NCBI GenBank assembly: GCA_963849095.1 | Contig: CAWKGA010000010.1 | Location: 31,412 to 95,411, forward strand | Source: an uncultured Gammaproteobacteria bacterium | GTDB taxonomy: Bacteria; Pseudomonadota; Gammaproteobacteria; Steroidobacterales; Steroidobacteraceae | Length of the DNA: 64,000 nucleotides | Direction: 5' to 3' | Shown here: positions 9,299-42,857 of the stretch, piece by piece | Position numbering within the stretch: the stretch's first letter is position 1 | Layout of the letters: every line of letters starts with the position of its first letter | The notes under the pieces: model-generated | Databases searched by the model: none | Told to the model about the DNA's origin: nothing | Seen by the model: only the letters and a program-made list of their open reading frames with translations | Program-made: the position numbers and the translations under genes

Positions 9299-9573
9299 GG
9301 CTCCGTCCGCACGAGCGCCCGCTCGCTCAGGGCGTCGAGGAACGTCAGCACCTCGCGCTCGACGACCTCGCGCGGCTGAGGCGCGTATTTCTCGACGAGC
9401 CGGGAGACGATTTCCTCGACGGTATGCTCCCCGGTGCACAGCTGCACGATGTCCGCCGCGGTGGGATTGAGCTGCATGCCTTTCTCGGGATAGAGCAGCA
9501 GGTACCGGTTGGTCTTCTGATCGAGCCGCAGTCTCGCCTTGGGCGCGAGGCGCGGCCGGGCGTCCTGCGGCAT
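9295..9573 (-). CDS. pqqD: PQQ biosynthesis peptide chaperone PqqD
   Basis: 92 aa (MPQDARPRLAPKARLRLDQKTNRYLLLYPEKGMQLN...). ATGA overlap with the pqqC stop at 9573. Confidence 0.9.
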   Translation of the reverse strand: MPQDARPRLAPKARLRLDQKTNRYLLLYPEKGMQLNPTAADIVQLCTGEHTVEEIVSRLVEKYAPQPREVVEREVLTFLDALSERALVRTEP

Positions 9574-10298
9574 CACTCGCGCGGCCCCTCCGTCCCCCAG
9601 CCGGGCTCGACGTAGGCGGCATAGACCGCATCGAGCAGGTGCCAGAGAATCTCGGTCTTGCGGATGAGAGCTGCGATGCACCGCTCCTGCAGCTCGCGGG
9701 TCGCCGCATGCGTGGTGACGTACGTGATGGCCTCCTCGGAGTCGCCGCGGGCCCGGGTCACGCGGGCGCGGAAGTATGCGAGCATTTGCGGATCCACCCA
9801 CGGGTAGTGCCGCTCCCAGGCGAGTATGCGCCGCGACATGAGGTCGGGCGCGAAGAATTCGGTGAGCGAGGAGGCGACCGCCTCGGTGAGACTGCGCTCG
9901 CGCACGAGCTGCACGTAGCTGTCGCAGGCAAAGCGCACGCCTGGCAGGACCGATCGACAGCTCGCGACCTCCGCGGGGTCGAGCCCGACGCCGGCGGCGA
10001 GGCGCAGCCACATCGAAAGGCCCCCTTCCGTGTCGCTCGTCCCGTCGTGATCGTGGATCCGGTGGATCCACATGCGCCGGAAGCCGGGGTCCTCGGACTT
10101 CGCGAGAATGAGCGCATCCTTGATCGGAATGCGCGTCTGGTAGTAGTAGCGGTTGAGCACCCACTGCTGCAGCTGGACCCGCGTGAGCTGCCCGGCGTGC
10201 ATCAGCACGTGATAGCGGTGGTGATCGTGGTAGCGGCGCGCGCCTTCCTCGCGCAAATGCTCGATGAACTCCTCGCGCGTGAGCGGCGCGCCGTCCAT
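9573..10298 (-). CDS. pqqC: Pyrroloquinoline-quinone synthase PqqC
   Basis: 241 aa. Motifs RYHDHHRYHVLMH and WVLNRYYYQ are typical of PqqC. Confidence 0.92.
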   Translation of the reverse strand: MDGAPLTREEFIEHLREEGARRYHDHHRYHVLMHAGQLTRVQLQQWVLNRYYYQTRIPIKDALILAKSEDPGFRRMWIHRIHDHDGTSDTEGGLSMWLRLAAGVGLDPAEVASCRSVLPGVRFACDSYVQLVRERSLTEAVASSLTEFFAPDLMSRRILAWERHYPWVDPQMLAYFRARVTRARGDSEEAITYVTTHAATRELQERCIAALIRKTEILWHLLDAVYAAYVEPGWGTEGPRE

Positions 10299-11222
10299 TC
10301 AGATCTCGAGCTCGAGCCCGTCGTGGGCCACTTCCCAGCCGGCGGCGGTCACAGCGGCTCGCTCCGGCGAGTCCTCGCGCAGGATGGGATTGGTATTGTT
10401 GATGTGGATGAAGATCCTTCGGCCCCCGCCGATGCGACCCAGCGTCGCAAGGCTCCCCTCGGGGCCGCCGATCGGCCAGTGCGCCATGTCTTCGGCGCGC
10501 CGCTCGCCGAGCGCGAGCGCGATGAGCTCGTCGCTCGCCCAGAACGTTCCGTCGAAGAAGATGCAGTCCGCACGCCCGAGCGCCTGGCGGATGGCGGGAG
10601 TCGGGGCGGCGACACCCGAGAAGTAGACGAGCGTTCCACCCGTGCGGCGGTCGCGGATCTCGAGGCCCACATTATCCTCCGGGCTCGGCTCGACCCGGCC
10701 GCGCAGGTGCAGGGGCGGTTGACCGGGAACCGCGATGGCCTCCACCGTCAAGCCGCTCGGGCGGCCGTCGGCGAGAGGGGGCTCGAGTGCTGCGCGTCCG
10801 GGCGTCAAAACATGCCAGGTCGCCTGGCCGGCGAAGCGCTCGAGGGTGGCATAGAGCGCGTTGCCCTCGGTGAATCCGCGCCGCACCCGCTCGGTCGCAT
10901 AGATCGCAAGAGGTTGGGACTCGCGGAGCGACAGCAGGCCGAGGCAGTGGTCCAGGTCGCCGTTGGTGATGAGCAGTCCCGCGATGGGAGAGTGTCGCGG
11001 GGCGCTCGGGTGCAGAGGGGGGAACCCCTCGATCTGCGCCCGGATCTCCGGGGACGCATTGAGTAGAAACCAGGCTTTCCCGTCAGAGCTGACGGCAAGC
11101 GATTCCTGCGTACGCGCATGGGCGGAAAGGGTCCCGTCCCGCACGCCGCGACAGTTCGCACACCCGCAGTTCCATTGCGGAAAGCCGCCGCCGGCGGCAG
11201 AGCCGAGTACTCGGATTCTCAC
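10299..11222 (-). CDS. pqqB: PQQ biosynthesis protein PqqB (metallo-beta-lactamase fold)
   Basis: 307 aa. N-terminus MRIRVLGSAAGGGFPQWNCGCANC and GDLDHCLG. Confidence 0.92.
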   Translation of the reverse strand: MRIRVLGSAAGGGFPQWNCGCANCRGVRDGTLSAHARTQESLAVSSDGKAWFLLNASPEIRAQIEGFPPLHPSAPRHSPIAGLLITNGDLDHCLGLLSLRESQPLAIYATERVRRGFTEGNALYATLERFAGQATWHVLTPGRAALEPPLADGRPSGLTVEAIAVPGQPPLHLRGRVEPSPEDNVGLEIRDRRTGGTLVYFSGVAAPTPAIRQALGRADCIFFDGTFWASDELIALALGERRAEDMAHWPIGGPEGSLATLGRIGGGRRIFIHINNTNPILREDSPERAAVTAAGWEVAHDGLELEI

Positions 11223-11243
11223 CGCCGCGAGCCGTAAAGATCT

Positions 11244-11265
11244 CTCCGGCCATCGCTGGCCGGAG
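11244..11265 (-). terminator. Intergenic pqqA-pqqB hairpin (possible attenuator or processing site)
   Basis: Perfect 8-bp stem CTCCGGCC/GGCCGGAG with a 6-nt loop, 11 nt after the pqqA stop and followed by AGATCTTTA on the coding strand. Confidence 0.4.
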
Positions 11266-11275
11266 GTTCACGTCC

Positions 11276-24613: not shown

Positions 24614-25996
24614 TCACTGCTCCGGCTGGCTCGGACGAGCCACCAGCGTATTGCCCTGCAGCTCGTACTTGCGCATGAGGAGGCTGTCAGAGCTCTCGGA
24701 GGCCTCTCCCACGTGAGCGAGGGCCTGTCCAATGGAGATTCCGACCTTGCCGGCTCCCGCCGGCGGCAGCGTCTGCGCAGCGCCGCTCACGAGCCAGAAC
24801 ATGCCGAGCCCGCCGAGGCATGCGGCGCTGAGATCGCTCATCGCAGGCCGTAGCAGCGAGAAGTATCTGCTGCGCAGCAAGGCGAGAGCGCCGGCCGCGA
24901 GCAGCGCGAGCACCAGCGCGTCGGCGAGCACGGCGCCCGCGTCGTAGCCGATCACCATCGGCGCTCGGGTCCACCCGGCAAGATGCTGCGGGGCGAGCAG
25001 CGCGGGCAGCACGAAGCCGTCGAGCAAACCGAGAATCCCCGCGGGCAGCAGCCAAAGCCTCGGGCGCGCCCGGCCTGCCGACGTCGCGAGGAAGCCGGCG
25101 GAGAACAGCGCGGCGCCGAGCAGCAGCAGCGCCGCGTCCGCCGCATGCATCGATGCGGCGGCGACAGCGAGAAGCAGCAGCAGAGCCGTCCACCCGGCCG
25201 CGGCTATCTGCAGGCGCCCGATCTGCACCGTCGCGATCCCGACGGCGAGCAGCGCCACCAGGCAGCCGATGAAACTCTCGATCAGCGCCGTTTGCGGTTG
25301 GATCCATCCCGTCGCCTGCGCGAGGAGGGCTAAACCGTAGCCTGCCGCCAGAGTGGCGAGGATGCTCGCAACGTCCTGCCAGCGCCGCACGAGCAGCAGC
25401 GCGGCGAGGAGGAAGCACAGCCGAGCGGAGCCATGGAGGATGTGCATGAGCCCGAGCCGCACGTACTCGCCGATGCCCGCGGCCGGCAGAGAACCGGTGT
25501 CCGGAACCGCCAGCCGCTGGCTGGACGCCGTGAACAATTGCCGCGTGAACCGGCCATCGATCTCGATGCGCGCAAAATCGACGTGCGCAGGCGCCCGCTC
25601 GAACATCGCATAGTCGTGCAGCGAGAGGCCGCTCATCGGTCCTGCGCAGCGAAAGATGATCTCGAAGCCGTAGAGGCCGGTCCCGACCTCGAGCGGGTCG
25701 ACCTTGCCGAGGTCGTAGCCCTGATCGCTCGCCGGACATTCGTGGCCGCGGGCCCACACGTCCGTGTGCGCCAGCACGTAGTCCCCGAGCTTGCTCACGG
25801 TGAGCACGGGGATCGCAGCGCCCGTGAGGCCCTGCGCGGTGTCGACGGGCAGCACGTATCGGAGGGTCACGGTGCCGCTGTCGCGGGAGACGACCCAGGT
25901 CGAGTAGCTCACACTGTCACCGGCGGCGAGCGCGACATGGGCTGCTCCGACGAGCAAGCACGATGCGGCGAGCGCGAGGATTCGTGTCCGGCTCAT
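24614..25996 (-). CDS. HupE/UreJ_2-like polytopic membrane protein with an N-terminal periplasmic domain
   Basis: Signal peptide, a ~180-aa soluble domain, then GLMHILHGSARLCFLL (HupE/UreJ-type H-x2-H segment) and about 8 TM helices. ATGA overlap with the upstream PPIase gene. Confidence 0.55.
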   Translation of the reverse strand: MSRTRILALAASCLLVGAAHVALAAGDSVSYSTWVVSRDSGTVTLRYVLPVDTAQGLTGAAIPVLTVSKLGDYVLAHTDVWARGHECPASDQGYDLGKVDPLEVGTGLYGFEIIFRCAGPMSGLSLHDYAMFERAPAHVDFARIEIDGRFTRQLFTASSQRLAVPDTGSLPAAGIGEYVRLGLMHILHGSARLCFLLAALLLVRRWQDVASILATLAAGYGLALLAQATGWIQPQTALIESFIGCLVALLAVGIATVQIGRLQIAAAGWTALLLLLAVAAASMHAADAALLLLGAALFSAGFLATSAGRARPRLWLLPAGILGLLDGFVLPALLAPQHLAGWTRAPMVIGYDAGAVLADALVLALLAAGALALLRSRYFSLLRPAMSDLSAACLGGLGMFWLVSGAAQTLPPAGAGKVGISIGQALAHVGEASESSDSLLMRKYELQGNTLVARPSQPEQ

Positions 25997-26949
25997 TCCG
26001 ATTGGCCCGGTGCGAGCAGGATCTGCGCCTCCGAGCGCAGGACCGCGAGGTTCTCCTGCGTCGCGCGCTGGAGCTCGGCCTGCCGGTAGTCCGAGTAGAC
26101 CTGCGTGCGCGCGACGGAGAAATCGGCCACCGACGGCAGCTGGCGGCTGTCCATCACGAGCACGTGAACCCCATCGGTATCGACGATCGGGTCCGAGACC
26201 TCCCCGTCGCCGAGGGTTTCCGCGACCTGGTAGAGCTTTGCGCCGAGATGAATCTTCGCGGCGAAATCGAGCTCCTCGGTGTTGTCCACGCGGCCGGAGT
26301 CGACGAAGCCGAAGTGCTCCATGACGTAGTCGATCGATGCGCCGGAACGCAGCTGGTAGACGGCCTCGGCCGCGTCCTCCTCGGCCTGTGCGACGCTCTG
26401 ATCGGCGTTCTGGTAGCCGCCGACGTGCAGCACGAGGTCGTGCACCGTCATCGTGCCGCCGGTCGTGTACTTCGAGCGGTGAGTGTCGTAGAAGGCGTGC
26501 AGCTGCGCCTCCGTCGGCGCGATCGCGAGCAGGGGCGCGACCACCTGCGCATTGACGGCAGCGGCCATCGTGTCGCGGACCTCGGTCGTCGTCTCGGGCA
26601 GATCGAGTGAGAGGCCGCGCTGCACCAGCAGTTCCTCATTGATCATCTCGCGTAGCACGCGGCTGCGCTCGGCCGGGGAGGCGTCCGAGAACGCGGCTCC
26701 CGTCTCCGACTCGGTCTGCGAGATGAAATCGCTCATCAAGACGCCTTTCTGATTGACGAGCGCGACGTAGCCCGGCGGCACCGCGGTGGCCTGCCGAGAA
26801 GCAGGGCGGAACAGTCCGAAGCAGGCGACCGCGAGGCCGATCGCGATACCGCACGCGGGCAGCGCAAGGCTGCGCTGCGGCCGGCGCGCCAGAGCGGCGA
26901 GGCGCCGTTTGAGCGGGCTGGGAAGTCGGGCGATGGTGAGCTGGGTCAT
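25993..26949 (-). CDS. Membrane-anchored PpiC/parvulin-type peptidyl-prolyl isomerase (SurA/PpiD-like)
   Basis: N-terminal TM anchor, a SurA-N-like helical part and a C-terminal rotamase-like segment (VHDLVLHV...GEVSDPIVDTDGVHVLVM). Confidence 0.7.
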   Translation of the reverse strand: MTQLTIARLPSPLKRRLAALARRPQRSLALPACGIAIGLAVACFGLFRPASRQATAVPPGYVALVNQKGVLMSDFISQTESETGAAFSDASPAERSRVLREMINEELLVQRGLSLDLPETTTEVRDTMAAAVNAQVVAPLLAIAPTEAQLHAFYDTHRSKYTTGGTMTVHDLVLHVGGYQNADQSVAQAEEDAAEAVYQLRSGASIDYVMEHFGFVDSGRVDNTEELDFAAKIHLGAKLYQVAETLGDGEVSDPIVDTDGVHVLVMDSRQLPSVADFSVARTQVYSDYRQAELQRATQENLAVLRSEAQILLAPGQSE

Positions 26950-26967: not shown

Positions 26968-27804
26968 TCACCCCTCGCGGCCGGCGGCGGGCGCCGCTGC
27001 AGCCGTCGGGTGCGAAACGGTGTGGATGTACACGGCGAGGGCTCGAATCTGCTCGAGGCTCAAGGTTTCGAGCCACGCCGGCATGATCCGGTGCCGTCCG
27101 AAATAGATGCTGTCGTAGAGCGACTGAGGGTCTCCGCCGCTGTCCCACACGTTCACCGTGAGATCGGGCGCGCCGTAGTCGGAGTCGCCGCGTGCATCGC
27201 CGGCGTGGCAGTCGCCGCAGTCGCCCTTCGTGCTGTAGTACAGCGTGTGTCCTTCTTCCGCCGCTTCCGCGTCATATGGCCGGTGGTTGAGCTTCAGCAG
27301 ATACTGGACGACGTCCCGGATCTCGGCGTCGGTGAGGACGCCGCGCAGACCGAACGCGGGCATGTCGGTGACGTTGCGTGCCTTGCTCTGGCCGGAGCGG
27401 ATGCCGTAGAGCACGGTGCGTTCGATGTCGTAGACGCTCCCGGCGCCGTAGAGCCAGACCTGGTCGGTGAGGTTCGGTGCACCGAGCGTCGTATTGCCGC
27501 GCATGTCCGCGCCGTGGCAGGCCGCGCAGTATTGCTCGAAGAGCGGGCGCGCCTGCGCGACGGCAAAGCGCACCAGCGCCGGATCGGCCCCCGCCTCATC
27601 GGGCATCACGGCGAGCAGTCGATACTCGATCCGCTCTCGGTGCGCCCGCAGGTCTGCCGCTGCGATGGCTGCGCCGGCGAGCGCGATCGCCGCGGCAGCG
27701 AGCATCCATGCCCATCGCCGGCGGGGCCTTCGTCGCGGGCCGGGTCCGCGAGGCGGCGGCCGGCCGCGGCCGCGGGCCGTCTGCGCGATGTGGGCCTCGT
27801 TCAT
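26968..27804 (-). CDS. CcoP/FixP-like membrane-anchored dihaem cytochrome c (orphan; no ccoNOQ nearby)
   Basis: TM anchor plus two haem sites, CAACHGADMRGN...GAPNLTD and CGDCHAGDARGD...GAPDLT, each followed by an MPAF/MPAW methionine ligand region. Confidence 0.75.
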   Translation of the reverse strand: MNEAHIAQTARGRGRPPPRGPGPRRRPRRRWAWMLAAAAIALAGAAIAAADLRAHRERIEYRLLAVMPDEAGADPALVRFAVAQARPLFEQYCAACHGADMRGNTTLGAPNLTDQVWLYGAGSVYDIERTVLYGIRSGQSKARNVTDMPAFGLRGVLTDAEIRDVVQYLLKLNHRPYDAEAAEEGHTLYYSTKGDCGDCHAGDARGDSDYGAPDLTVNVWDSGGDPQSLYDSIYFGRHRIMPAWLETLSLEQIRALAVYIHTVSHPTAAAAPAAGREG

Positions 27805-28034
27805 TGATTGCATGGGGATCTGGCCGTGGGATGGGCGCCGGGCCGCGCTCTGCACGGGTGCGGCCTTTGCGCTACTATGATCACGGTGCCCACTTTGCCG
27901 AGATCACATAAGCGCCGGCCGCGCCATGTCAACGTCCGCACTACCTTGAGCCGCCTCGAGGCCACGTGCCCCGAGAAGGCAGAGCGCCGCGGCCCGACCG
28001 AGCGGCCCAGAGCCTCATATCGAGCCTCAAGCAG

Positions 28035-30008
28035 ATGAACACCCCCGCCGATTCCGATCCGTCGAAGGAGCCGATCTTTCCGCGTTCTCATCGATTGATC
28101 CGCCACCTGGCGCTGCTCTACGGGATCGTCACCCTCGCGGTGGCCGTGTTCCTCGTCCTCGCTCTGCTGCCGCCCACCGTCCTGCCGGAGATCCGAGCCA
28201 TGGCGCGGGAGGCCGTCGCGGGCGGGCTCGGGGCCATGGTGCTCCCGGCGCTGCTGCTGGCCCTGACCGCCCTTACCGCCACGCTCGCCTTGACCACGGC
28301 CCGGTTTCGATATTCTACGGCAGCGGAGGAGGCCGCAGGCGCTGCATCTGCGCGCCGGCTCGAGCGTCGCGAGGATCCCGGCTTTGCCGGACGCATGGGC
28401 CAGGCCTTCATCGTGCCGGCCGGGGCCGTCTGCATCTGGGTGGCCATAACGCTGATGTGGCCAGCCTCCGCCGGCGTAGAGCACACCGCCGGCAGCGACA
28501 TCGTGGCGGCCTTGGTGTTTGGGATCGCCTTTGTCTCGCTCGTCTGCGAGCGGGTGATGAACGCCTTTCCGCAGCCCCAGCTGCCGGAGGCGCCCACGCT
28601 GCGGAGGCTGCTGCTGCTCGCGACCCTGATTCTGGCCGCAGCGGCGTGCATCGAGCTCGGCCACGGCGCCGGGCTGGGCTGGCTGCACTGGCCGGAGCTC
28701 GTCGTGATCTGCATCCCAGGCGTCGTAGCGGCGGAGCTTGCCATACGCGCGCTGGCGCGACTGTTTCTCCCCCAGCGCGCCCCGGAGGACGCTCGGGCGG
28801 TGACGGACAGTATTGTCGTCGCGCTCATCACCGGTGGTCCGCGCGCGCCGGCGAACTTGCTCCGCACTCAATTTGGCCTCGACTTCGCCCGCAGCTGGGC
28901 GCTGTCGTTCCTGACCGCGGCGGCGCTGCCGGCGCTTGCCGGCACCGCGCTGCTCTGCTGGTGCTTGAGCGGGCTGAAGCTCATCGACTGGGCGCACCGG
29001 GGGATCTACGAGAGGTTCGGCGCCCCGGTTGCCGTGCTCGGTCCGGGGCTGCACCTGCTGCTGCCCTGGCCGCTCGGGAGGCTCCGTCCCGTCGAGTATG
29101 GCGCGATTCATGCGGTGCCGATCGGTGTTGACGAGTCCACACCCGAGGCGGCAACCGGGCCGATCGGCGCGGAAGCGCCGCCCCCGGTGACCCTCAACCG
29201 GTTGTGGGAGACGGCTCACGCCGATCAGGCCCATTACCTCGTGCCGAGCCTGGGCACCGCCAAGCAGAGCTTTCAGAGTGTCAGCACCGAGATCTACGTA
29301 TTGTATCGTGTGGGCCTCACCAACGCCGCCGCCTTGCAATCGGTCTATACGGTCGCGGATCCGCAATCCCTCATCGCGGAAGCCGCGAGCCGCCTGGTCC
29401 TGCGCTATTTCAACTCGCGGACGCTCGATCAGGTGATCGGCGCGGAGCGCGAGAACGTCGCGGGCACGCTGCAGGCGGAGCTGGCGGCGGATCCGGCCAT
29501 CCACGGAGCGGGGATCGACATCGTGTCCGTGCTGATCGAGGAGATCCATCCGCCCGAGGGCGCGGCCGCCGCGTACCACGCCGTACAAGCTGCCCAGATC
29601 AACGCGCTCGCGAGCATCTCCAACGAGAAAACTCGCGCCGAGAGCCGGGCCGCCGTCGCGCAGGCGGAGGCCCACCAGCTCGATACAGTGGCCGACGCCC
29701 GCGCGGTCGAGATCGTTCATGCCGCCGATGCCGATGCGTATCGCTTCGATGCGGACCGCCGCGCTTACGACGAGGGCCAGCGATCGTTTCTGCTCGAGCG
29801 CACCTTCAGCACGTACGCCGCAGCGCTGTCGCGGACGCACATCACCTTGGTCGACCATCGGCTGAAATCCGACCAGCGCCCGATCCTAGACCTGCGCGAG
29901 CTCGCCGTTGCGCCGCCTGCAGGCGAGGGGACGGGCAGTGCGCAGAGCGGGGTGGCCGCGAGCAGCTCGACTCCACCCCTCACACCGGCGATCGTGCCTA
30001 CGGAGTGA
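28035..30008 (+). CDS. SPFH/Band-7 (HflK-like) protein with a ~300-aa N-terminal polytopic membrane domain
   Basis: ATG 28035. Multiple hydrophobic helices, then an SPFH core (GIYERFGAPVAVLGPGLHLLLPWPLG ... GIDIVSVLIEEIHPPE) and a coiled-coil tail. Confidence 0.7.
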   Translation: MNTPADSDPSKEPIFPRSHRLIRHLALLYGIVTLAVAVFLVLALLPPTVLPEIRAMAREAVAGGLGAMVLPALLLALTALTATLALTTARFRYSTAAEEAAGAASARRLERREDPGFAGRMGQAFIVPAGAVCIWVAITLMWPASAGVEHTAGSDIVAALVFGIAFVSLVCERVMNAFPQPQLPEAPTLRRLLLLATLILAAAACIELGHGAGLGWLHWPELVVICIPGVVAAELAIRALARLFLPQRAPEDARAVTDSIVVALITGGPRAPANLLRTQFGLDFARSWALSFLTAAALPALAGTALLCWCLSGLKLIDWAHRGIYERFGAPVAVLGPGLHLLLPWPLGRLRPVEYGAIHAVPIGVDESTPEAATGPIGAEAPPPVTLNRLWETAHADQAHYLVPSLGTAKQSFQSVSTEIYVLYRVGLTNAAALQSVYTVADPQSLIAEAASRLVLRYFNSRTLDQVIGAERENVAGTLQAELAADPAIHGAGIDIVSVLIEEIHPPEGAAAAYHAVQAAQINALASISNEKTRAESRAAVAQAEAHQLDTVADARAVEIVHAADADAYRFDADRRAYDEGQRSFLLERTFSTYAAALSRTHITLVDHRLKSDQRPILDLRELAVAPPAGEGTGSAQSGVAASSSTPPLTPAIVPTE

Positions 30009-30042
30009 TGACCATGACAGTGCTTTCAGGGCCCTGACCGAT

Positions 30043-31030
30043 ATGTTCATCGATCCTCCCTCGGGGACTCCCGCCGGTGCTGCTCGCGATCGCCGCTTCG
30101 GGCCGCAGTTGCGCATTGCCGCCTCAGCGCTGATCCTGCTCGCCGCGATCGCCGCGGCGTGCATCGTCATGGTGCCGGCGGGCGAGGCCGCCGTCATCAC
30201 GCGCTTCGGCAATCCCGTCCGCGTCGTGACGCAGCCCGGACTCGCGTGGAAGCTGCCGGCGCCGTTCGAGAGCAGCATTCCGATCGATCTGCGCCTGCGT
30301 ACGACCTCCACCGGACTGCAGGATGTCGGCACGCGCGACGGCTTGCGGGTGTTGATGCAGGCTTATGTCGCATGGCAGGTGCCGAGCGATCCGCAGCGGG
30401 TGCGGCAGTTCCTGCGCTCGGTGCGCAATCAGCCCGACGAGGCGGCACGCCAGCTGCGCAGCTTCGTCTTCGCGCAACTGCACATCATCTCGAGCAACTT
30501 CGAGCTGACCGATCTCGTCAATATCGACCCGCAGAAGGTGCGGCTCGATGCCTTCGAGCGGCAGCTGCGCGACCAGATCGCGCCGCGCATGCTGCAGGTG
30601 TACGGCATCGACATCCGCCAAGTCGGCATCGAGCGCATGACGCTGCCCGACGAAACGCTTGCCGCCACGGTGGCTCGGATGCGCGCGGAGCGCGAGACCG
30701 TGGCCGAGCGGCGCACGGCCGACGGACTGCGGCAGGCCGCGGCCATCCGCGCCGACGCCGACCGGGATGCGCCGGGAAGTCGTCGCGCAGGCGCGCGAGC
30801 AGGCGGCGCACACGGAGGCGGACGCCGAGCAGGCCGCGGCGCGCATCTACGCCAAGGCTTATCAGAGCGATCCGGGGCTTTACACGACGCTGCGCTCGCT
30901 CGATGCGCTTGGTCAGATGATGGGCCGCAACGCAAGCGTGGTGCTGCGGACCGACGCGGCGCCGTTCCGGGTGCTGGTCGACGGGCCCGCGGGCCTCAAC
31001 TCGCCGCCCGGCTCGAAGACAGGCCCGTGA
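30043..31030 (+). pseudogene. HflC-like SPFH protein, one frame change near 30765-30778 (or assembly indel)
   Basis: Frame 1 gives AAVITRFGNPVRVVTQPGLAWKLP...ERETVAERRTADGLRQAAAIRADADRDA. The continuation RREVVAQAREQAAHTEADAEQAAARIYAKAYQSDPGLYTTLRSLDAL...* is in the next frame (ORF 30659..31030). Confidence 0.65.
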
Positions 31031-32114
31031 GCGAGGTTCTCGACTCCTTTCCAGCGTCCGAAGCGGTCGAGCCGGTCGGGCCGCCGCCGCCGCCGCCGCC
31101 CGGGCCCATCGCCCAGTCGGTGGCGATTGGGTTCCGCGCCGTCTATGCCGCCGGATTGCTGTTGCTGCTGATCTGGCTCACGAGCAACGTGCGCGAGATC
31201 GCCTCGGACAGCCAGGCGGTCGTGCTGCGCTTCGGACGCATCGTGCGCACACAGCAGTCCGGCTTGCTGGTCGCCTGGCCGCGTCCGATCGAGAAGGTCG
31301 AGCTGCTGCCGGGCCCGGAGCGGCAGTTGAGCCAGGACGTCTCGACGCTCCCGCCGTCGAGCGAGAAGTCCCAGGAGCTCGTCGGGCCGTTCGACGCGAC
31401 GCAGGCGATGCCTCAGAACATCGCCGCGTACCTGACGGGCGACGGCAACGTCGTGCTGCTCAACGCCACTCTGATCTACCGCATCAACGATCCGATCGCC
31501 TATGCGCTGGAGCAGACCCACGTCGCTCCCGCGCTCGATCGCTTGTTCCGCGCAACGACCGTGCACGTCACGGCCGGCCGGGATCTCGATGACTTCCTGG
31601 TCGTGGAGAACGCCAATCCGCAAAGCACCGACCAGGCCGTGATGCGCGCCGAGGTGCGCAGCTCGCTGCTCAGCACCATGAACGCGCGCCTGCAGGCTCT
31701 TGCAGCCGCCGGCACGCCGTTCGGCGTGGAGGTCGAGCGCATCGACATGACGGCGTACTATCCCCCGGAGGCCAAGACGGCGTTCGACGCCGTGCTGGTC
31801 GCGACCCAGGCGGCCGACCGAGGCGTGGCCGAGGCGAGTACCGATGCCGAGCGCCGGCGGCAGGAAGCGAACCGCGAGCACGACCAGCTGCTGAGCGCGG
31901 CCCAGGCGACGGCGACGGAGCTCGTGAGCCGAGCCAACGTCGATACCGCGCGCATCCTCGCACTGGCGCGTCAAGAGACGCCGCAAACCCGCAGCAGCCT
32001 CGTGCTGCGAGAGTACCGGGCGGAGGTCGCGAGATCATGAACCGCGTCGGATCGGCCGTTTTGATCGACCCCAAGACGGGCGTACGCTACGTCTTGCCCG
32101 GAAAGCCCAAATGA
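31027..32114 (+). pseudogene. HflK-like SPFH protein, frame change near 32025-32040 (or assembly indel)
   Basis: GTG 31027 overlaps the previous stop (GTGA). Pro-rich N-terminus, one TM helix, and an SPFH core (AVVLRFGRIVRTQQSGLLVAWPRPIE). After the apparent stop at 32038, another frame reads EIMNRVGSAVLIDPKTGVRYVLPGKPK* (HflK-like end), and its TGA overlaps the ATPase ATG at 32111. Confidence 0.6.
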
Positions 32115-34126
32115 GCGCCACCCCCGACACCTCCAGCTACAGCCCCGCCGCAGTACAGCTGCCACCCGGCGGCCAGATCACCGGCCGGCCTGTGCCGCTG
32201 CTCGACCGTGCCGAGCGTTGGCTGCTCGGGCTGCGCTTGACGCTGGCGCTCGCCGCGGGCTGCGTGCTCATCGTGGCGGTCGGCATGAGGCTGCTCTTCC
32301 CGAGCGAAGCCGGCATTGCCGAACTGGTCGCCGGGATCTGCCGCGGCACTGGTGGCCGTGCCGGTGTTCGTCGAGGCCTGGCAGAGCCTGCGGCATCCGA
32401 GCCTGCACGGCATCACCGACCGGCTGGTCGCGCTGGCGCTCATTGCTGCGTGGGCGACCGGCGATCTCATGACGGCCGCTCTCCTGCCGATCATCATGAC
32501 GCTCGGCCACATGCTGGAGGAGCGCAGCATGCTCGGCTCGCATGAAGCCGTGCGAGCCCTCACCCGATTGACGGAGGCCGACAGCCGCCGGCTCCTGCCG
32601 GACGGCACCGTCGAGATGGTTCCCAGCGCACAGCTCAAGGTGGGCGATCTGATCGAGCTGCGCGCCGGTGAGCGCGTGCCGGCCGACGGCATCGTGCGCC
32701 GCGGCCACTCGAGCCTCGATCTCGCCTCGCTCACGGGCGAATCGGTTCCGGTCGAGATCGCCGAAGGCGACCAGGTCCTCGCCGGCGCGATGAATATCGA
32801 CGGGCTGCTGCAAGTCGAGCTCACCCGCGTGGGCGAGGAGAGCACCGTCGGTCGCATCATCGCGCCTGATGCGGGAGGCCGAGAACGCGAAGCCTCCGGT
32901 GACGCGGCTGCTCGATCACTATGCCGGACAGTACATGGCGCTGGTGCTGCTGGTTGCCGCCGGCACCTGGCTGATCACCGACAATGTGCCGGCGATGCTC
33001 GCGGTGCTGGTCGCCTCGTGTCCGTGCGCGCTGGTGCTGGCGGCTCCGTCCACCGCCGTCGCCGCCATCGCCGTCGCGGCACGCCACGGCATCCTGATCA
33101 AGGGCTCCGGGTTCCTCGAGCATCTGGCGGACGTCTCGTCGGTCATCTTCGACAAGACCGGGACCGTCACCACCGGCGATCTGCGCCTCGCCGAGATACG
33201 GCCGATGCCCGGCGTCGATCCGCAGCTCCTGCAGCGCCTGGGCGCAGGTCTCGGGGCCGCGAGCAACCATCCGCTGAGCCGCGCCGTCGCCGCATCCGTC
33301 CCCCAGCAGGACCAGCTGGCAGTGGCAGACTCCCGGGAGCTCGGTGGGTTCGGCGTCACTGGCCGGTATCACGGCGAGCCGGTCGCGCTCGGCCGCGCCG
33401 ATCTGTTCGAGCGCTTGGGGATCGAGGTGCCCGCGGCTCCGGCACACAACGGTCCGATCGCAGGCGTCAGCCTCGGCGAGAAGTTCCTCGGCTGGCTGCT
33501 GTTCTTCGATCAGCTGCGCGCGAGCGCGGCCCCGGCCGTGCAGGACCTGAAGTGCCTCGGCATCGAGCACATGGTGCTGCTCACGGGCGATCGCTATCCC
33601 GCGGCGCAGGCAGGTCGCGCGCGAGATCGGCATCGATAACGTCTATGCCGAGATGCTGCCCGAGCAGAAGATGGATCGCGTCATGCAGGAGATCAAGCTC
33701 GGCCACCGTCCCATGGTGGTCGGCGATGGCATCAACGACTCGCTGGCCTTGCGCGCCGGCGCCGTCGGCGTGGCCATGGGCGCGCAGGGAACGGGCGATG
33801 TCGCCTTCGCGTCCGCGGACCTCGCGCTGATGACCAATGATCTGCGGCGGCTCGGCACCTGCATCCGCCTGAGCCGCCGATGCCGCCGGACGATTTATGT
33901 CAATGTCGCGATCGGCCTGGGATTCACGTTCGGGCTGATCGTTCTCGCCGGCGCGGGAGTGCTCGGCGTCGAGGCGCCGATCATCGCGGCGCTGCTGCAC
34001 AACGTCAGCACCTTCATCGGCCTCGGCAATGCCGGCCGGCTGCTGCTCTTCGATGAGACGCAAGGAGCCGCCGCCGGGACGATCTCCGCTCAGCTCCCGG
34101 AGCGCCTCACCTCCAGCTCCTCGTAG
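32111..34126 (+). pseudogene. P1B-type heavy-metal P-type ATPase without an N-terminal HMA domain; three frame changes (~32336-32345, ~32861-32868, ~33608-33616) or assembly indels
   Basis: Four consecutive ORF pieces (32111, 32316, 32869, 33653) carry TGES (LTGESVPV), SCPCALV, DKTGT (FDKTGTVTTG), LTGD, MLPEQK, VGDGINDS and a terminal HNVSTFIGLGNAGRLL. Confidence 0.8.
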
Positions 34127-35109
34127 CCCTTGTAGCGGTAGATAAGGACCGAGGCGACCCAGGTGACGATGAAGATGCCGATGATGATGAAGCCAAGGCC
34201 GTTGAAGTTGCCGTTCAGGCGGTCGATCACGCCCCAGAAGGCGCCGGACAGATGCATCTGGTTCTCGATGAGGCCAAGCGCCTCGATACCACCGATGAGC
34301 AGGGCGACGATCACCGAGACGAGCGTGATGGTCATGTTGTAGAACAGCTTGCGAATGGGCTTGACGAACGCCCAGTCGTAGGCGCCGAGCATCAGGACGC
34401 CGTCGGTCGTATCGATCAGCGACATGCCCGCCGCGAAGAGCGTGGGAAAGACCATGATCGCCCAGATCGAGGTGCCCTTGGCGGCCTGCGTCGCGGAGAT
34501 GCCGAGCAACGCGACCTCGGTTGCGGTGTCGAAGCCCAGCCCGAAGAGAAAACCGAGCGGGAACATGTGCCAGCTGTGCCTGACCAGGCGAAACAACGGA
34601 CGGAACAGCCGGGCGGCAAAGCCTCGCTTGTTGAGCAGCAGGTCGAGATCCTCCTCGACGTACGCTCCGCCGCGGCGGATGTGGTGGAAGGTGATCCACA
34701 CCGCGCGGAAGATCATGAGGTTCATCAGGGCGATCAACAGCAGGAACAGCGCCGAGACCGAGGTGCTGATGATGCCGCCGATGCCGCGGAGCAGGTCGAA
34801 GTGTCCGGCGAGCATCGTCGCGGTGGTGGCGATGGCCGCGGCCGCGAGGATCACCACGGTCGAGTGGCCCATCGCGAAGTAGAACCCTACCGTGACCGGC
34901 CGCTTGCCCTCCTGCATCAGCTTGCGTGTCACGTTGTCGATGGCGGCAATGTGATCGGCGTCCACGGCGTGGCGCAGGCCGAAGCCGTAAGCGAGGAGTG
35001 CCGTGCCGAGCAGAATCGGCTGACGGCGGAAGATCAGCACCGCCCAGATCCACGCGACGAGATTGATCAGCAGCAGGATGCCGTATATCCCGGCGATGGA
35101 GCGGCGCAT
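34090..35109 (-). CDS. HoxN/HupN/NixA-family nickel/cobalt transporter (NiCoT)
   Basis: ATG 35109 with AAGGAG 9 nt upstream. Signature RHAVDADHIAAIDN and LGFDTATE. 8 TM helices. Confidence 0.85.
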   Translation of the reverse strand: MRRSIAGIYGILLLINLVAWIWAVLIFRRQPILLGTALLAYGFGLRHAVDADHIAAIDNVTRKLMQEGKRPVTVGFYFAMGHSTVVILAAAAIATTATMLAGHFDLLRGIGGIISTSVSALFLLLIALMNLMIFRAVWITFHHIRRGGAYVEEDLDLLLNKRGFAARLFRPLFRLVRHSWHMFPLGFLFGLGFDTATEVALLGISATQAAKGTSIWAIMVFPTLFAAGMSLIDTTDGVLMLGAYDWAFVKPIRKLFYNMTITLVSVIVALLIGGIEALGLIENQMHLSGAFWGVIDRLNGNFNGLGFIIIGIFIVTWVASVLIYRYKGYEELEVRRSGS

Positions 35110-35309
35110 GGGCGCGCGCTCCTTGCTCAGAAAATAATGGAGGATGCCGAACATGTCAGACTCATCGAGCGGTGGCAGCGGGGAGCGCCAAGCTTCGGTC
35201 CAGACCCTCTCGATAGCCCCATGACAACCCTCGCGCCAGCTTATCCTGTCTAATACGCTGCTAGGGCCTGCTTCCCTCAACCGGACTCACGGACCCTCGG
35301 AGGCGCTCC

Positions 35310-36377
35310 ATGTTGTTGCGATCCGGGGCGTGGCCTGGTGCCGCATTCGCCGTCCTCTCGGCGATCCTGTTCGGCGCCGGCACGCCGCTTGCCAAGGTGC
35401 TGCTGCGAGACGGATTGAGCGCGCAGCTCCTTGCCGGCCTGTTCTATCTCGGCTCGGGGACGGGGCTCGGCGCTATCTTTCTCGTGCGAAGAGCGCTCGG
35501 CGCGAGATCCGGCGAGGCGCGGCTGCGGCGCGAGGATCTGCCGCAATTCTCGCTCGCGGTGCTGCTCGGCGGAATCATCGCGCCCGTCCTCATGATGGTC
35601 GGCCTCGAGCGCACCTCTGCGGCTTCGGCCTCGCTCCTGCAGAGCCTCGAGGGGCTCGCCACCATGGGCATTGCGTGGGTCGTGTTCCGGGAGAACGTCG
35701 ACCGCCGGCTGCTCGCGGGCGCACTCGCCATTCTCGCCGGCGCGGTTCTGTTGTCCTGGAGCGGGGGATCCGTCCGCGCGAGCTCCGGCGCGCTACTCAT
35801 CGCTGCGGCCTGCGTCGCCTGGGGCGCGGACAACAATCTCACGCGCCCGCTGGCCAAGGCGGATCCGGTACAGATCGCCGCGATCAAGGGCCTGGTTGCG
35901 GGCTCCGCGAATGTGGCGCTGGCCCTTGCGGTGCACGCTCACCTGCCATCCGCCGGAACCGTCGCTGCCGCCGGTATTGTGGGCTTTTTCGCCTATGGGG
36001 TGAGCCTCGCTCTGTATGTGCTCGGCCTGCGGCATCTCGGGGCGGCGCGCACCGCGGCTTACTTCTCCACCGCGCCGTTCATCGGCTCGGCGCTCGCCGT
36101 CGGGCTGCTTTCCGAGCCGCTCACCTTGCGGCTCCTCGGTGCGGGCGCCCTGATGGGCGTCGGCCTTTACCTACATCTCACCGAGCGCCACCAGCACCTG
36201 CACCAGCACGAGTCTCTCGAGCACGCGCATCGCCACGTCCACGATGAACACCACCAGCACGAGCACACGCCGTCGGACCCGCCGGGCGAGCCGCACTCCC
36301 ACTCGCATCGCCACGAGCCCCTCACGCACAGCCATCCGCATTACCCGGATCTGCACCACAGGCACGGTCATTCCTGA
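35310..36377 (+). CDS. EamA/DMT-family transporter with a His-rich C-terminal tail
   Basis: 10 TM helices in two EamA repeats. The last ~67 aa (from 36174) contain about 24 His (HLTERHQHLHQHESLEHAHRHVHDEHHQHEH...HSHSHRHEPLTHSHPHYPDLHHRHGHS). Confidence 0.75.
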   Translation: MLLRSGAWPGAAFAVLSAILFGAGTPLAKVLLRDGLSAQLLAGLFYLGSGTGLGAIFLVRRALGARSGEARLRREDLPQFSLAVLLGGIIAPVLMMVGLERTSAASASLLQSLEGLATMGIAWVVFRENVDRRLLAGALAILAGAVLLSWSGGSVRASSGALLIAAACVAWGADNNLTRPLAKADPVQIAAIKGLVAGSANVALALAVHAHLPSAGTVAAAGIVGFFAYGVSLALYVLGLRHLGAARTAAYFSTAPFIGSALAVGLLSEPLTLRLLGAGALMGVGLYLHLTERHQHLHQHESLEHAHRHVHDEHHQHEHTPSDPPGEPHSHSHRHEPLTHSHPHYPDLHHRHGHS

Positions 36378-40513: not shown

Positions 40514-42779
40514 TCAGAGCGCGAGGCGGATCGTGAGCGAGGCGCTGCGGCCGGGGCCGGGGAGGACGTGGTTCTCCGATGCGCTCGTGTAGTAGGGCGA
40601 CAGGTAGTAGTACTTGTTGAGCAGATTGAACCCGTTCAACTGCAGCGACAGATTGTCGGTCGCGCGGTAGGTCACCATGGCGTTGACGACGGTGTAGCCG
40701 GGGAGGTAGGCCGCCTCGCCGCTGTCGGCGTAACGGTGCGTGAGCCAGTTGCCTCCGAATCCGAACTCCCAGCGGCTCGAAAGTTCATATTCCGTCCACA
40801 GCGTGATTTCATCGTGCGCGACGTTCGGCATCGCCTTGCCGACGTAGGCCGGCGTGCCGGAGGCGATCGTCACGCCGTCGAGATACGTGTAGCCGGCGGT
40901 GATCTCCCAGTGGCGGGTGATGTGGCCGGTCGCGTCGAGCTCGAGGCCGTTCACCCGCTGATTGCCTTCGAGCAGGGTGATGTTGGGGTTCTCCGGATCG
41001 TTGGTCTCAGCGTTGTCCACTTCCGTCTGGAACACTGCGCCGGTGAGCAGCAGACCGCCGTCGAGCACGGTGTTCTTCACCCCCGCCTCGAAGGTCTTTG
41101 CCTTCTCCGGGCCGAGATCGGCGGTCTTCGTGGTGAGCGACAGCGCCTCGGCGGAGGGATCGAAGGAGGTGCCGTAGAACACGTAGTACGTCTGCGTGGG
41201 CGTCGGCTTGAACTCGAGCGCCGCGCGCGGACTGCCGAGGCGGTCGAGGTGGCCGAGCTGCAGGAGGCTATCGCTTGCAAGGGTGAGCTGGTCGTAGGCG
41301 GCCGTGAACTCGTCATAGCGCGCGCCCACGAGCAGGTCGAGGTACGGCGTGAAACCGATCGTGTCGGTCGCATAGGCGGAATAGACGTACGCGGTGGTGT
41401 CCTGGTACGAGTTCACGGGCTCCGTTCCCGGCAGCGGCTCGTACGGGTCCGGATCGAGGAGCGGGGTCTCGGGAACCCAGTTGTTGTTCGTGTTGAACGG
41501 ATTGACGTAGCGGGCGAGGTCGGAGGTCTGACGCGAGTACTCGATGCCGCCGACGAAGTCGTGGGTCACGGCTCCCGTATTGAACCGGGCCGAGAGATCG
41601 ACCTGGTCGTCGATGTTCGTCTGGATGCCGGAGCTGTCCGGTGCGTCGCGGCCGACCAGGATGTCGTCGAGCGGCATGTCCGGAGCGGGCGGACCCTGTC
41701 CGCCGTCGGCCACCGTGCCGTAGTTCGGCGCGTGGAAGAAGTAGCTGAAGTCGTAGTGCGCGTAGCGCAGCGTGTTCGAGATCGAGACGCTCGAGCTGAA
41801 ATCGTGCTTGTAGAGCGCGGTCGCGATGTCGACATTCGAACGTCGTGCGGTCGGTCACGAGACCGTAGTCGGTGCCGATCGGAACCGGCGCGGGCAGGCC
41901 GTTGACGAACGGTATGCCCGTGTCCGGCAGGTCGTCCTCTTGCTGGTGCAGGTAGGCGAAGGTGAGCGTGTCCGGCCCGCCGATGCCGAAGGAGATCGAC
42001 GGAGCGAGTCCCCAGCGCCGGTTCTCGACGAAGTCGCGCTCCGCGATCGAGGAGGACTCACCCATGGCGTTCACACGGAAGGCGTCGTCGGTCCCGAACG
42101 GCTCGTTCACGTCCGCGGTGCCGCGGTAGAGGGCGTTCGTGCCGAAGTCCGAGGTGAACACATCGAGCGGAGCGAGGAGGGGTGCCTTGCTCACCTGGTT
42201 GATGGCGCCGCCCGTCGAGCCGCGCCCGAACAGCACGGCCGAGGGACCATCGACGACCTCCGCCGACTGCAGATCGAAGCTGTCGCGCGTGTAGACGGCG
42301 GCGTCCCGGATGCCATCGAGGAAGAAGTCGTTGAACGCCGAGAAGCCGCGAATGTTGACCGTGTCCCCCCGCGCGGCGCCCTCTCCTGCGTTGAGGGTGA
42401 TGCCGGGAACGTTCTGCAGAGCCTGCTCGAGCCGAGTGTCGGACTGCTGCTCGATGAGCTCGCCGCTCACGACGGTGACCGTCTGCGGAATGTTCTGCAC
42501 GTTCTCGGGCAGCTTGTCCTCGATGAGGGGCCGAAGGCCGGTCACGGTGACCTCCTGCAGGTCGGCGTCCGAATCCGCGGTGGAGGCCTGATTGGCTGCG
42601 CTGTCGGCATGCGCCGCCGCCGCGCCGAGGAGCGAGGATATCCCCACCCCGCAGACGCTCAGGGTGCCGAGGCGCTGCCAGGCGAGACCCGCTGTCTTCG
42701 GGCCGGGGCGCTGCCCGACCTGTCTCGGTGTCTGTGAGCAGCCCTCGGTGAGGCCTTCGTAGGGACCGTTACCCATCAT
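40514..42779 (-). pseudogene. TonB-dependent (siderophore-type) receptor, one frame change near 41835-41842 (or assembly indel)
   Basis: ATG 42779 with GAGGAG 6 nt upstream. Plug domain (VVDGPSAVLFGRGSTGGAINQVSK). The N-terminal frame reads ...DYGLVTDRTTFE, and the next frame continues NVDIATALYKHDFSSSVSISNTLRYAHYDF... into ORF 40514..41713. Confidence 0.8.
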
Positions 42780-42838
42780 CAAGCTCTCCTCGGCGATCAG
42801 CCGGCAGTGCGCGTCCGGCATAGTCTAATATAAATGAT

Positions 42839-42857
42839 AATGATTCGCATTCAGGAG
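42839..42857. promoter_or_regulatory. Fur-box-like operator upstream of the TBDR-PiuC-Sel1-ABC operon
   Basis: ATAAATGATAATGATTCGC matches GATAATGATAATCATTATC at 13/19, and an overlapping register GATAATGATTCGCATTC is also present. It lies in an AT-rich patch 60 nt upstream of ATG 42779. Confidence 0.5.

Follow-up and report, generated by a model that had tools for sequence, protein, structure and literature searches.

Three SPFH genes and an HMA-less P1B-type ATPase gene form a conserved, mobile hmtA-type cassette in Steroidobacteraceae and other bacteria

In Pseudomonas aeruginosa, the P1B-type ATPase HmtA (PA2435) is encoded near three SPFH proteins, the HflK-family protein PA2439, the HflC protein PA2438 and the HflC-family protein PA2437, and these genes are upregulated in a znuA mutant (PMC4542158, Table 2). 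Zinc depletion induces the hmtA locus, Zur binds its promoter (PMC4542158, PMC8531726), and the proteins that it encodes rise under zinc depletion (PMC11761036). Over-expressed HmtA raises cellular zinc and copper (PMC10393844, PMC11923076), an unusual import activity that, according to a review, needs confirmation (PMC10393844). Here, we describe a cassette of the same type in a 64,000-nucleotide (nt) stretch of DNA with a G+C content of ~69%, hereafter the window, from an uncultured gammaproteobacterium of the family Steroidobacteraceae (assembly GCA_963849095.1, contig CAWKGA010000010.1, positions 31,412 to 95,411). The cassette comprises three SPFH genes, here called S1, S2 and S3, followed by a gene for a P1B-type ATPase without a heavy-metal-associated (HMA) domain.

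The published P. aeruginosa locus resembles the window in layout, with an HflK-family gene, an hflC gene, a further HflC/HflK-family gene and a P1B ATPase gene, an SPFH gene standing first (PMC4542158, Table 2; PMC8531726), but there an additional gene, PA2436, separates hmtA from the SPFH genes. The cassettes of P. putida and P. syringae consist of positional orthologues of the window genes (37, 57–60, 40 and 58% identity for S1, S2, S3 and the ATPase, respectively), and 4-nt gene overlaps and CPC and HN-x-ST motifs are common to both species and the window. Pseudomonas S2 carries a very His-rich N-terminal tail and the Pseudomonas promoter a Zur-like box, whereas the window has neither, and the window lineage adds a triad of genes for a cytochrome c, a peptidyl-prolyl isomerase (PPIase) and a HupE-like permease. 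The original prediction that this organization is undescribed is therefore overstated and only partly right, since the published hmtA locus has the same layout and the cassette is common, and annotated by the NCBI pipeline PGAP, in cultured bacteria. The gene arrangement is already known, though only as entries in omics tables; what is new for the lineage is the co-conserved triad, an S1 membrane domain without a match in the PDB, and RcnR-type operators in relatives. In the literature searched, we found no paper on a role of the SPFH proteins for the pump and no description of an SPFH protein with a P-type ATPase partner.

According to the listing of open reading frames (ORFs) and domain searches, S1, S2, S3 and the ATPase gene lie consecutively on the plus strand (28035–34126). 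S1 (28035–30008, 657 amino acids (aa), intact) encodes a long HflK-like SPFH protein with a Band_7 domain and a fold match to HflK, and is 100% identical to an NCBI protein annotated to a Steroidobacteraceae metagenome-assembled genome (MAG). Its Band_7 domain covers residues 343–557, counted on the ORF that starts at GTG 27966, and is preceded by a ~320-aa helical membrane domain. S2 (start TTG 30034 or ATG 30043, end 31030, ~331 aa) encodes an HflC-like protein by Band_7, hflC and PDB HflC matches, and S3 (31027–32114, ~362 aa, GTG start) a short HflK-like protein by Band_7 and hflK matches, with a poly-Pro N-terminus (PPPPPPPGP, residues 19–27). The ATPase gene (32111–34126, ATG start) encodes ~670 aa after indel correction and matches E1-E2_ATPase, Hydrolase and TIGR01525. 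S2 and S3 overlap in a GTGA at 31027, and the S3 stop and ATPase start overlap in an ATGA at 32111 that is visible only after the correction of single-base indels. The original prediction had given the same four genes in a row, the same two overlaps, an HflK-like protein fused to a polytopic N-terminal domain, a second HflK-like protein with a poly-Pro N-terminus and an HMA-less heavy-metal ATPase, all of which are borne out here; it had also called S2 a canonical HflC-like protein, of which the likeness to HflC stands and the word canonical does not, as the scores below indicate.

Pfam and NCBIfam models place all three proteins in the SPFH superfamily and apart from housekeeping HflK and HflC. 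PF01145 (Band_7, cutoff 23.6 bits) matches S1, S2 and S3 above its gathering score (65.9, 96.7 and 51.2 bits; S2 and S3 corrected). On the equivalog models, S1 and S3 reach 54.9 and 71.1 bits for hflK (TIGR01933, cutoff 159.4) and S2 reaches 109.7 bits for hflC (TIGR01932, cutoff 134.4), all under cutoff. Sequence searches of the PDB match S2 to HflC (E 2e-22) and, weakly, S1 and S3 to HflK (S3, E 5e-5). S1 and S3 match each other and neither matches S2, so the trio consists of two K-type proteins and one C-type protein. S2 is the best conserved of the three, being 57–60% identical to its counterparts in Pseudomonas, Klebsiella and Paraburkholderia. In the last-named genus and in Pseudomonas (loci L064, L065 and L061), it bears an extreme His-rich N-terminal tail, e.g., MSQSHSHDHDDHSGHDHGHGGHHHHGHHHHHHHG, an arm that may bind metal in trans for the HMA-less pump.

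The Escherichia coli HflK/HflC-FtsH cage (7vhp, 7wi3, 9cz2) likewise combines an SPFH domain with a long coiled-coil helix and has HflK- and HflC-type paralogues encoded by adjacent genes, and S1 and S2 have HflK and HflC as their best matches by sequence and fold. The cassette differs in having three paralogues instead of two, all below the equivalog cutoffs, in the 320-aa polytopic domain of S1, which has no PDB relative, and in its link to a P-type ATPase rather than to hfq-hflX or FtsH. In QmcA-YbbJ (8z5g) and human stomatin-aquaporin 1 (9zd2), an SPFH oligomer surrounds or binds one particular membrane protein, and both are among the fold matches of S1. Unlike QmcA-YbbJ, the cassette has no NfeD partner; the P-type ATPase would be the partner instead.

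S1 is laid out as a polytopic membrane domain (residues 1–320), an SPFH domain, a coiled-coil helix of ~70 residues and a disordered tail. An AlphaFold2 model of the full protein (pLDDT 73) contains the SPFH domain and a 72-residue helix; the best matches to its fold are HflK (7vhq_E, E 1e-9), HflC, prohibitin, stomatin, erlin, QmcA and flotillin. A model of the N-terminal domain (pLDDT 84.5, pTM 0.80) consists of seven long helices and two short ones; it has no significant fold match in the PDB (best E 0.85), and no Pfam or NCBIfam family covers the region. Weak matches to the membrane domain of cation diffusion facilitator zinc transporters were dismissed (TM-score ≤0.34, E>1). The domain occurs in 219 clusters (50% identity), in which almost every full-length match is 560–750 aa long; this indicates that it is essentially always fused to an SPFH domain. 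From the seven long helices of the model and Arg/Lys-rich loops read in the sequence, we predict that the N-terminus lies inside and the SPFH domain in the periplasm, as in HflK. The most conserved motifs of the domain, FPxPQLPEAPxLRR and TGGPRAPxxLLRTHxGLDFARSW, both fall in predicted cytoplasmic loops.

A heavy-metal P1B-type pump is expected to carry the catalytic motifs of P-type ATPases and a class-specific set of membrane motifs. The corrected ATPase contains FDKTGT, SLTGES, GDGIND and SNHP, SCPC in transmembrane helix (TM) 4 and LLHNVST in TM6. It scores 498.7 bits on TIGR01525 (cutoff 346.25), and Pfam finds E1-E2_ATPase and Hydrolase but no HMA domain in it. P1B-4 pumps also lack a classical HMA domain. 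The closest PDB sequences, the P1B-4 pump sCoaT (7qbz, 1.7e-77) and the P1B-2 pump ZntA (4umv, 1.7e-75), are nearly tied and share the eight-helix P1B core with the window pump, which differs in TM4 (CPC vs SPC) and TM6 (HNVST vs HEGST in P1B-4 or ADTGAT in ZntA). Aligned to 4umv, it has Phe at the TM5 Lys site and HN at the AD(T) site of P1B-2 (ZntA/CadA) pumps, and it reaches 296 bits on the ZntA equivalog NF033775 (cutoff 1240); aligned to 7qbz, its TM4 reads SCPC, not the SPC of P1B-4 (CoaT/CzcP) pumps, and its HNVST stands at HEGST. CPC and HN-x-(S/G)T are conserved throughout the ATPases of the cassette, which are 49–58% identical to the window ATPase; all other plasmid P1B ATPases reach ≤38%. 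This motif pattern outside P1B-2 and P1B-4, together with the identity gap, suggests that the pump is best treated as a P1B clade of its own.

The mycobacterial PacL-CtpC/G/V effluxosomes offer a parallel for a small operon in which a P1B ATPase is paired with a dedicated membrane scaffold that it requires for stability (PMC13460109). P1B-6-like pumps (CtpC, FezB) are marked by N-X18-H-N-X-(S/T) across TM5 and TM6 and by SCA in TM4, or CPC in CtpC (PMC13460109). The window pump shares CPC and HN-x-(S/T), as HN-V-ST, with CtpC, but its nearest conserved Asn lies 31 residues before the His, versus 18; this spacing was counted on the corrected sequence and set against the published motif. PacL itself is a single-pass DUF1490 protein, not an SPFH protein, and binds the N-terminal metal-binding domain of its pump, which is missing in the window pump, and the PacL-Ctp system is induced by metal excess and exports (PMC13460109). 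In the cassette, Band_7 is the sole Pfam domain of the partner proteins, and Pfam assigns the pump no N-terminal domain. The parallel is a functional analogy only.

A functional unit is expected to be kept together in related genomes. We scanned one genome per GTDB species with the S1 alignment and obtained 56 loci, all from MAGs, in Steroidobacteraceae and other Gammaproteobacteria, Caulobacteraceae/Brevundimonas, Xanthobacteraceae and Bryobacteraceae/Terriglobia/Acidiferrales. Where the flanks are long enough, S2, S3 and the ATPase gene are kept in 36 of 38 loci from Gammaproteobacteria, Alphaproteobacteria and Acidobacteriota, directly after S1 in 34 and upstream of S1 in two acidobacterial loci; both exceptions among the 38 are also acidobacterial. 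The proposed association of three SPFH genes with a P1B ATPase gene is therefore conserved across this neighbourhood survey. Tight coupling is kept as well, as expected if the genes form the co-translated unit that had been suggested for the window: 4-nt start/stop overlaps join S2 to S3 in 24/39 loci and S3 to the ATPase gene in 27/34, and the gap between S1 and S2 is usually 0–59 nt.

The triad lies on the minus strand of the window, divergent from S1, and encodes in this order a membrane-anchored dihaem cytochrome c (26968–27855, Cytochrome_CBB3 and Cytochrom_C domains), with two conserved CxxCH motifs and two conserved Met residues; a membrane-anchored PPIase (Rotamase_2 by domain search, 25993–26949); and a HupE_UreJ_2-family permease whose N-terminal periplasmic domain has two conserved Cys (24614–25996). 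It is present in 27 of 30 evaluable loci, missing only in Acidobacteriota. Three arrangements were seen: upstream and divergent, upstream and co-directional, or co-directional and located after the ATPase gene. The divergent operon had been proposed to belong with the cassette in an undescribed system; its co-conservation supports the tie, but in view of the published hmtA-type layout, the claim that the system is undescribed goes too far. In the acidobacterial loci L011, L021 and L041, which have no triad, S2-S3-ATPase is followed by ZnuC-like and ZnuB-like ATP-binding cassette (ABC) genes and then S1, and in the acidobacterial locus L014, also without a triad, such genes lie upstream of S1. 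Proteins of the DUF6152 family (N-terminal HHGFGMF) are encoded within 10 kilobases (kb) of the cassette in L002, L012, L013, L019, L022, L024, L033, L036 and L058.

The cassette is also found in cultured bacteria and on plasmids. The best matches of the window proteins there are their positional counterparts (S1 35–37%, S2 57–60%, S3 35–40% and ATPase 50–58% identity), the family is common in Enterobacterales, Nevskia, Rahnella, Serratia, Rhizobium and many Pseudomonas species, and PGAP names its members 'protease modulator HflK/HflC' and P-type ATPase. The cassette is in none of the E. coli complete genomes. A tblastn search of 72,556 plasmids with S1 returned 11 records (Rhizobium, Burkholderia, Paraburkholderia and Klebsiella), and the four inspected all encode a long HflK, HflC, SPFH/HflK and P-type ATPase in this order; in B. 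ubonensis, nothing but these four genes lies between insertion sequence (IS) elements. The same search with the ATPase returned >5000 plasmid records, of which the top 11 (49–55% identity) are exactly the 11 S1 records and the next best is ≤38% identical. Synteny in 36/38 loci and co-occurrence in 11/11 plasmid records place the arrangement far from chance. Thus, the cassette is, with near certainty, a widespread, mobile and self-contained four-gene unit, and genomic data strongly support a dedicated SPFH partner of a P1B pump.

Upstream sequences were compared for regulatory signals. In P. putida and P. syringae, where the cassette is chromosomal, S1 is preceded by the Zur-box-like element GTTATATCGTAAC. 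The P. syringae locus also has a perfect Zur-type palindrome ahead of cobW, of which GTTATATCGTAAC is a degenerate version. Genes close to the cassette include cobW (COG0523) and one for an amiA-like amidase in P. syringae, and folE2 in P. putida, all of which we take to be typical Zur-regulon genes. In the window, the spacer that separates S1 from the divergent cytochrome c gene (27856–28034) contains no AT-rich palindrome and no significant inverted repeat. It holds a conserved element, TTTGCGCTACTATGA, whose form TTTGCG(C/T)TA(C/G)TAT(G/A) (27864–27880) also precedes S1 by 50–190 nt in ~20 related loci. The element includes TACTAT at 27873–27878 and is probably a -10 region, which would give S1 a long leader of ~160 nt. 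A riboswitch was considered and rejected, as Rfam gave no match anywhere in the window at its gathering threshold and, for 27700–28150, none even at E≤1.

A different signal is found in seven relatives (L037, L047, L049 and L052–L055), where RcnR/CsoR-type operators stand directly upstream of S1. They have the form TACT-N7-(A/G)GTA with a G tract, one or two per locus, e.g., TACTATAGGGGAGTA and TACTACCGGGGGGTA, which we take to be the E. coli RcnR operator type. Of 12 distinct TACT-N7-(A/G)GTA sites in 1.12 Mb, 11 lie upstream of S1. Such operators imply induction by metal excess, an efflux logic opposite to the Zur logic of Pseudomonas. No DUF156 regulator is encoded in the window or in the flanks of the loci with these operators. 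RcnR-like regulator genes were seen near the cassette in L002, L019 and L022, in L002 next to a His-rich RcnA-like NicO gene. On sequence evidence, then, the metal of the pump (Zn/Cu or Ni/Co) and its direction carry conflicting signals, Zur in Pseudomonas versus RcnR-type operators in relatives.

We propose that the three SPFH proteins assemble at the inner membrane into a periplasm-facing ring or cage, in which S2 would alternate with the HflK-type proteins S1 and S3 as HflC does with HflK. The polytopic domain of S1, whose most conserved residues lie in predicted cytoplasm-facing loops, may serve as an adaptor through which the pump is docked at the ring or within it. Coupled translation would hold S2, S3 and the ATPase in fixed proportion, and the assembly would stabilize and insulate the pump and enclose a space at its periplasmic mouth. 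The pump itself would supply trace metal under limitation, as reported for HmtA (zinc and copper uptake), rather than serve bulk detoxification; this is suggested by the uptake genes in the window, the ZnuA-family ABC neighbours and the Zur context in Pseudomonas. In the window lineage, the cassette may also work with the dihaem cytochrome c, the PPIase and the HupE-like permease. The cage or microdomain for the pump that had been suggested in the original prediction is a reasonable hypothesis, and we rate the combined statement, an hmtA-type cassette with this mechanism, as slightly better than an even bet. A bolder version, in which a periplasm-facing S1-S2-S3 cage that includes the novel polytopic domain of S1 and is dedicated to one P1B pump would make, with the triad of this lineage, a seven-component metal-handling nanocompartment, appears unlikely. 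If true, it would be the first bacterial SPFH cage with a transporter as client, the nanocompartment could serve, e.g., reductive metal uptake or the metallation of exported proteins, and it could also account for the importer-like behaviour of HmtA.

Three of the four cassette genes are frameshifted in the window. Comparison with the intact orthologous locus L002 identifies five single-base indels in the raw sequence: an extra base in S2 near 30772, a base missing in S3 after 32031, and extra bases in the ATPase gene near 32339, 32865 and 33613. The S2 tblastn pieces lie in frames +1 and +2 with 73–77% identity to the L002 orthologue, the ATPase falls into four pieces with 63–82% identity, and the corrected reading frames of all three genes are free of stops. 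A sister contig, L001, does not differ from the window over 27847–30189 (2.3 kb), shows 17 mismatches over 30190–30750 (~560 nt, 3%) and ends at 30753, 19 bases ahead of the first indel; this suggests either two haplotypes mixed into the consensus or a recombination tract inside S2. The MFD-labelled MAGs L021, L022, L030, L032 and L056 are also broken, mostly in S2, S3 and the ATPase gene. In the window, a TonB-dependent receptor gene on the minus strand (40514–42824) is split by a single frameshift near 41.85 kb, with the Plug domain in 41313–42824 and the barrel in 40514–41854. Programmed frameshifting was ruled out, because the break positions are non-homologous between long-read MAGs.

Two explanations would deprive the cassette of meaning, either in general or in this strain. 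The genes could be housekeeping hflK and hflC lying by chance next to an unrelated metal pump, as the PGAP label 'protease modulator HflK/HflC' might suggest. However, there are three genes, not two, none of which reaches the HflK/HflC equivalog cutoffs, the cassette is plasmid- or IS-borne in species with chromosomal hflKC, including Klebsiella and Burkholderia, and the synteny and the one-to-one plasmid co-occurrence described above are at odds with coincidence. Instead of the two-gene unit in an hfq-hflX context, we find three SPFH genes with an ATPase gene and metal-transport neighbours. The tests run thus refute this reading, to which we give almost no credence, and the possibility raised with the original prediction, that the corrected proteins might turn out to be ordinary HflK and HflC, falls with it. 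Alternatively, the frameshifts could be genuine and S2, S3 and the ATPase gene pseudogenes in this strain, as the clustering of five indels within 2.9 kb (30772–33613) between intact flanking genes would suggest. Yet amino acid identity is maintained at 73–82% on either side of each shift, the corrected frames have no stops, and the changes are indels only, with no nonsense changes. Moreover, apparently long-read MFD MAGs break at non-homologous positions while SMAG- and JOPF-labelled MAGs are intact, the divergence of L001 from 30190 suggests haplotype mixing in the consensus, and another gene, for the TonB-dependent receptor near 41.85 kb, is likewise split. The maintained identity, stop-free frames and non-homologous breaks indicate that the frameshifts are probably not real; the five indels are most likely assembly errors, and decay of the operon is rather improbable.

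Other explanations accept the cassette as a unit and assign it a different function. To our knowledge, characterized P1B ATPases export, including all those characterized structurally, and the window pump could be an ordinary outward exporter of Ni/Co, Cu or Zn that the SPFH trio stabilizes and clusters. The RcnR/CsoR-type operators upstream of S1 and the RcnR- and RcnA-like genes near the cassette in L002, L019 and L022 agree with such an efflux platform, and the TM6 HN-x-S/T and TM4 CPC motifs resemble those of CtpC, a zinc exporter that requires the scaffold PacL1 (PMC13460109), so that the trio would act as PacL does for CtpC/G/V. Against this, the Pseudomonas locus is Zur-bound and induced by zinc depletion (PMC4542158, PMC8531726), over-expression of HmtA raises cellular zinc and copper (PMC10393844, PMC11923076), uptake genes surround the cassette in the window and in the majority of loci, and the window has neither a DUF156 regulator nor an operator. 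We regard efflux as a possible reading, though clearly the weaker one. The trio might instead bind FtsH and shield or present the pump, tuning its half-life without forming a transport compartment. FtsH-dependent turnover is known for P-type ATPases such as MgtA, S2 matches HflC and S1 and S3 match HflK in sequence and fold, and protection from degradation has been reported for other bacterial metal transporters (PMC13460109). Proteolysis control is nevertheless doubtful: S1, S2 and S3 all score below the equivalog cutoffs, there is no ftsH in the cassette or its flanks, and the polytopic domain of S1 and the one-to-one link with an ATPase clade would be left unexplained. Several points weigh against the proposed uptake cage itself. 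The complex of SPFH trio and pump is one that we infer from genomes, the export activity of characterized P1B pumps runs counter to it, and the relatives with RcnR/CsoR-type operators and the three frameshifted genes count against it as well. Window S2 does not have the His-rich tail of Pseudomonas and Paraburkholderia S2, which is absent from the window lineage, and no Zur-type box was found in the window (TGTTATNNNATAACA, ≤3 mismatches). Orthology was compared by sequence for P. putida and P. syringae, while P. aeruginosa PA2435–PA2439 is likened by its published layout. The claim of HmtA import rests on over-expression, and the review asks for its confirmation (PMC10393844).

The surroundings of the cassette (window ~15–51 kb) encode PepSY_TM, TonB-dependent receptors, FecCD/ABC proteins, an extracytoplasmic function (ECF) sigma factor, NiCoT, a His-tailed EamA protein, a ZnuA-family ABC importer, a PiuC-like hydroxylase and Nramp, which by gene content make up a metal-uptake island. 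In Paraburkholderia and 11 related loci, the cassette has ZnuA-family ABC genes as direct neighbours. Among acidobacterial loci, ZnuC/ZnuB-like genes separate the ATPase gene from S1 in three and precede S1 in one more. The NicO/NiCoT-family Ni/Co permease gene of the window (34090–35280, minus strand; NicO 343.6 bits, RHAVDADHI motif) has counterparts in the flanks of 10/30 evaluable loci. In the 91%-identical relative L004 it is missing, the alignment skipping from window position 34118 to 35288. This difference is a 1.2-kb recent gain or loss directly after the ATPase gene, and NiCoT is a frequent but dispensable neighbour. An EamA-family transporter gene (35310–36377, plus strand), whose start is ~30 nt away from the oppositely oriented NiCoT gene, encodes a His-rich C-terminal tail of ~60 residues (HQHLHQHESLEHAHRHVHDEHHQHEH...). 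An AT-rich Fur/Zur-like box, TAATATAAATGATAATGATTCGCATT (42825–42855), the only such box seen in the window, lies upstream of an operon for a TonB-dependent receptor, a PiuC-like hydroxylase, a Sel1 protein and ZnuA-ZnuC-ZnuB. No His-rich loop was seen in the ZnuA-family binding protein of the window, and this ABC importer may be an Fe/Mn rather than a Zn system. Pyrroloquinoline quinone biosynthesis genes (8162–11267, minus strand), pqqE-like radical SAM/SPASM, pqqC-like and pqqB-like, are unrelated to the cassette.

HmtA has reportedly been an oddity since 2009, a P1B ATPase described as a metal importer and studied alone. The present results indicate that a pump of the HmtA clade comes, in essentially all cases, with genes for three HflK/HflC-like proteins, in a translationally coupled cassette that moves as a unit between phyla and onto plasmids. 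The conflict between Zur in Pseudomonas and RcnR-type operators in Steroidobacteraceae marks transport direction and metal specificity for direct measurement. Whether an SPFH cage holds, stabilizes or gates a metal pump becomes a testable question in P. aeruginosa, P. putida and Klebsiella. If it does, bacterial SPFH cages would have a new class of client, and metal uptake under nutritional immunity would be modelled differently.

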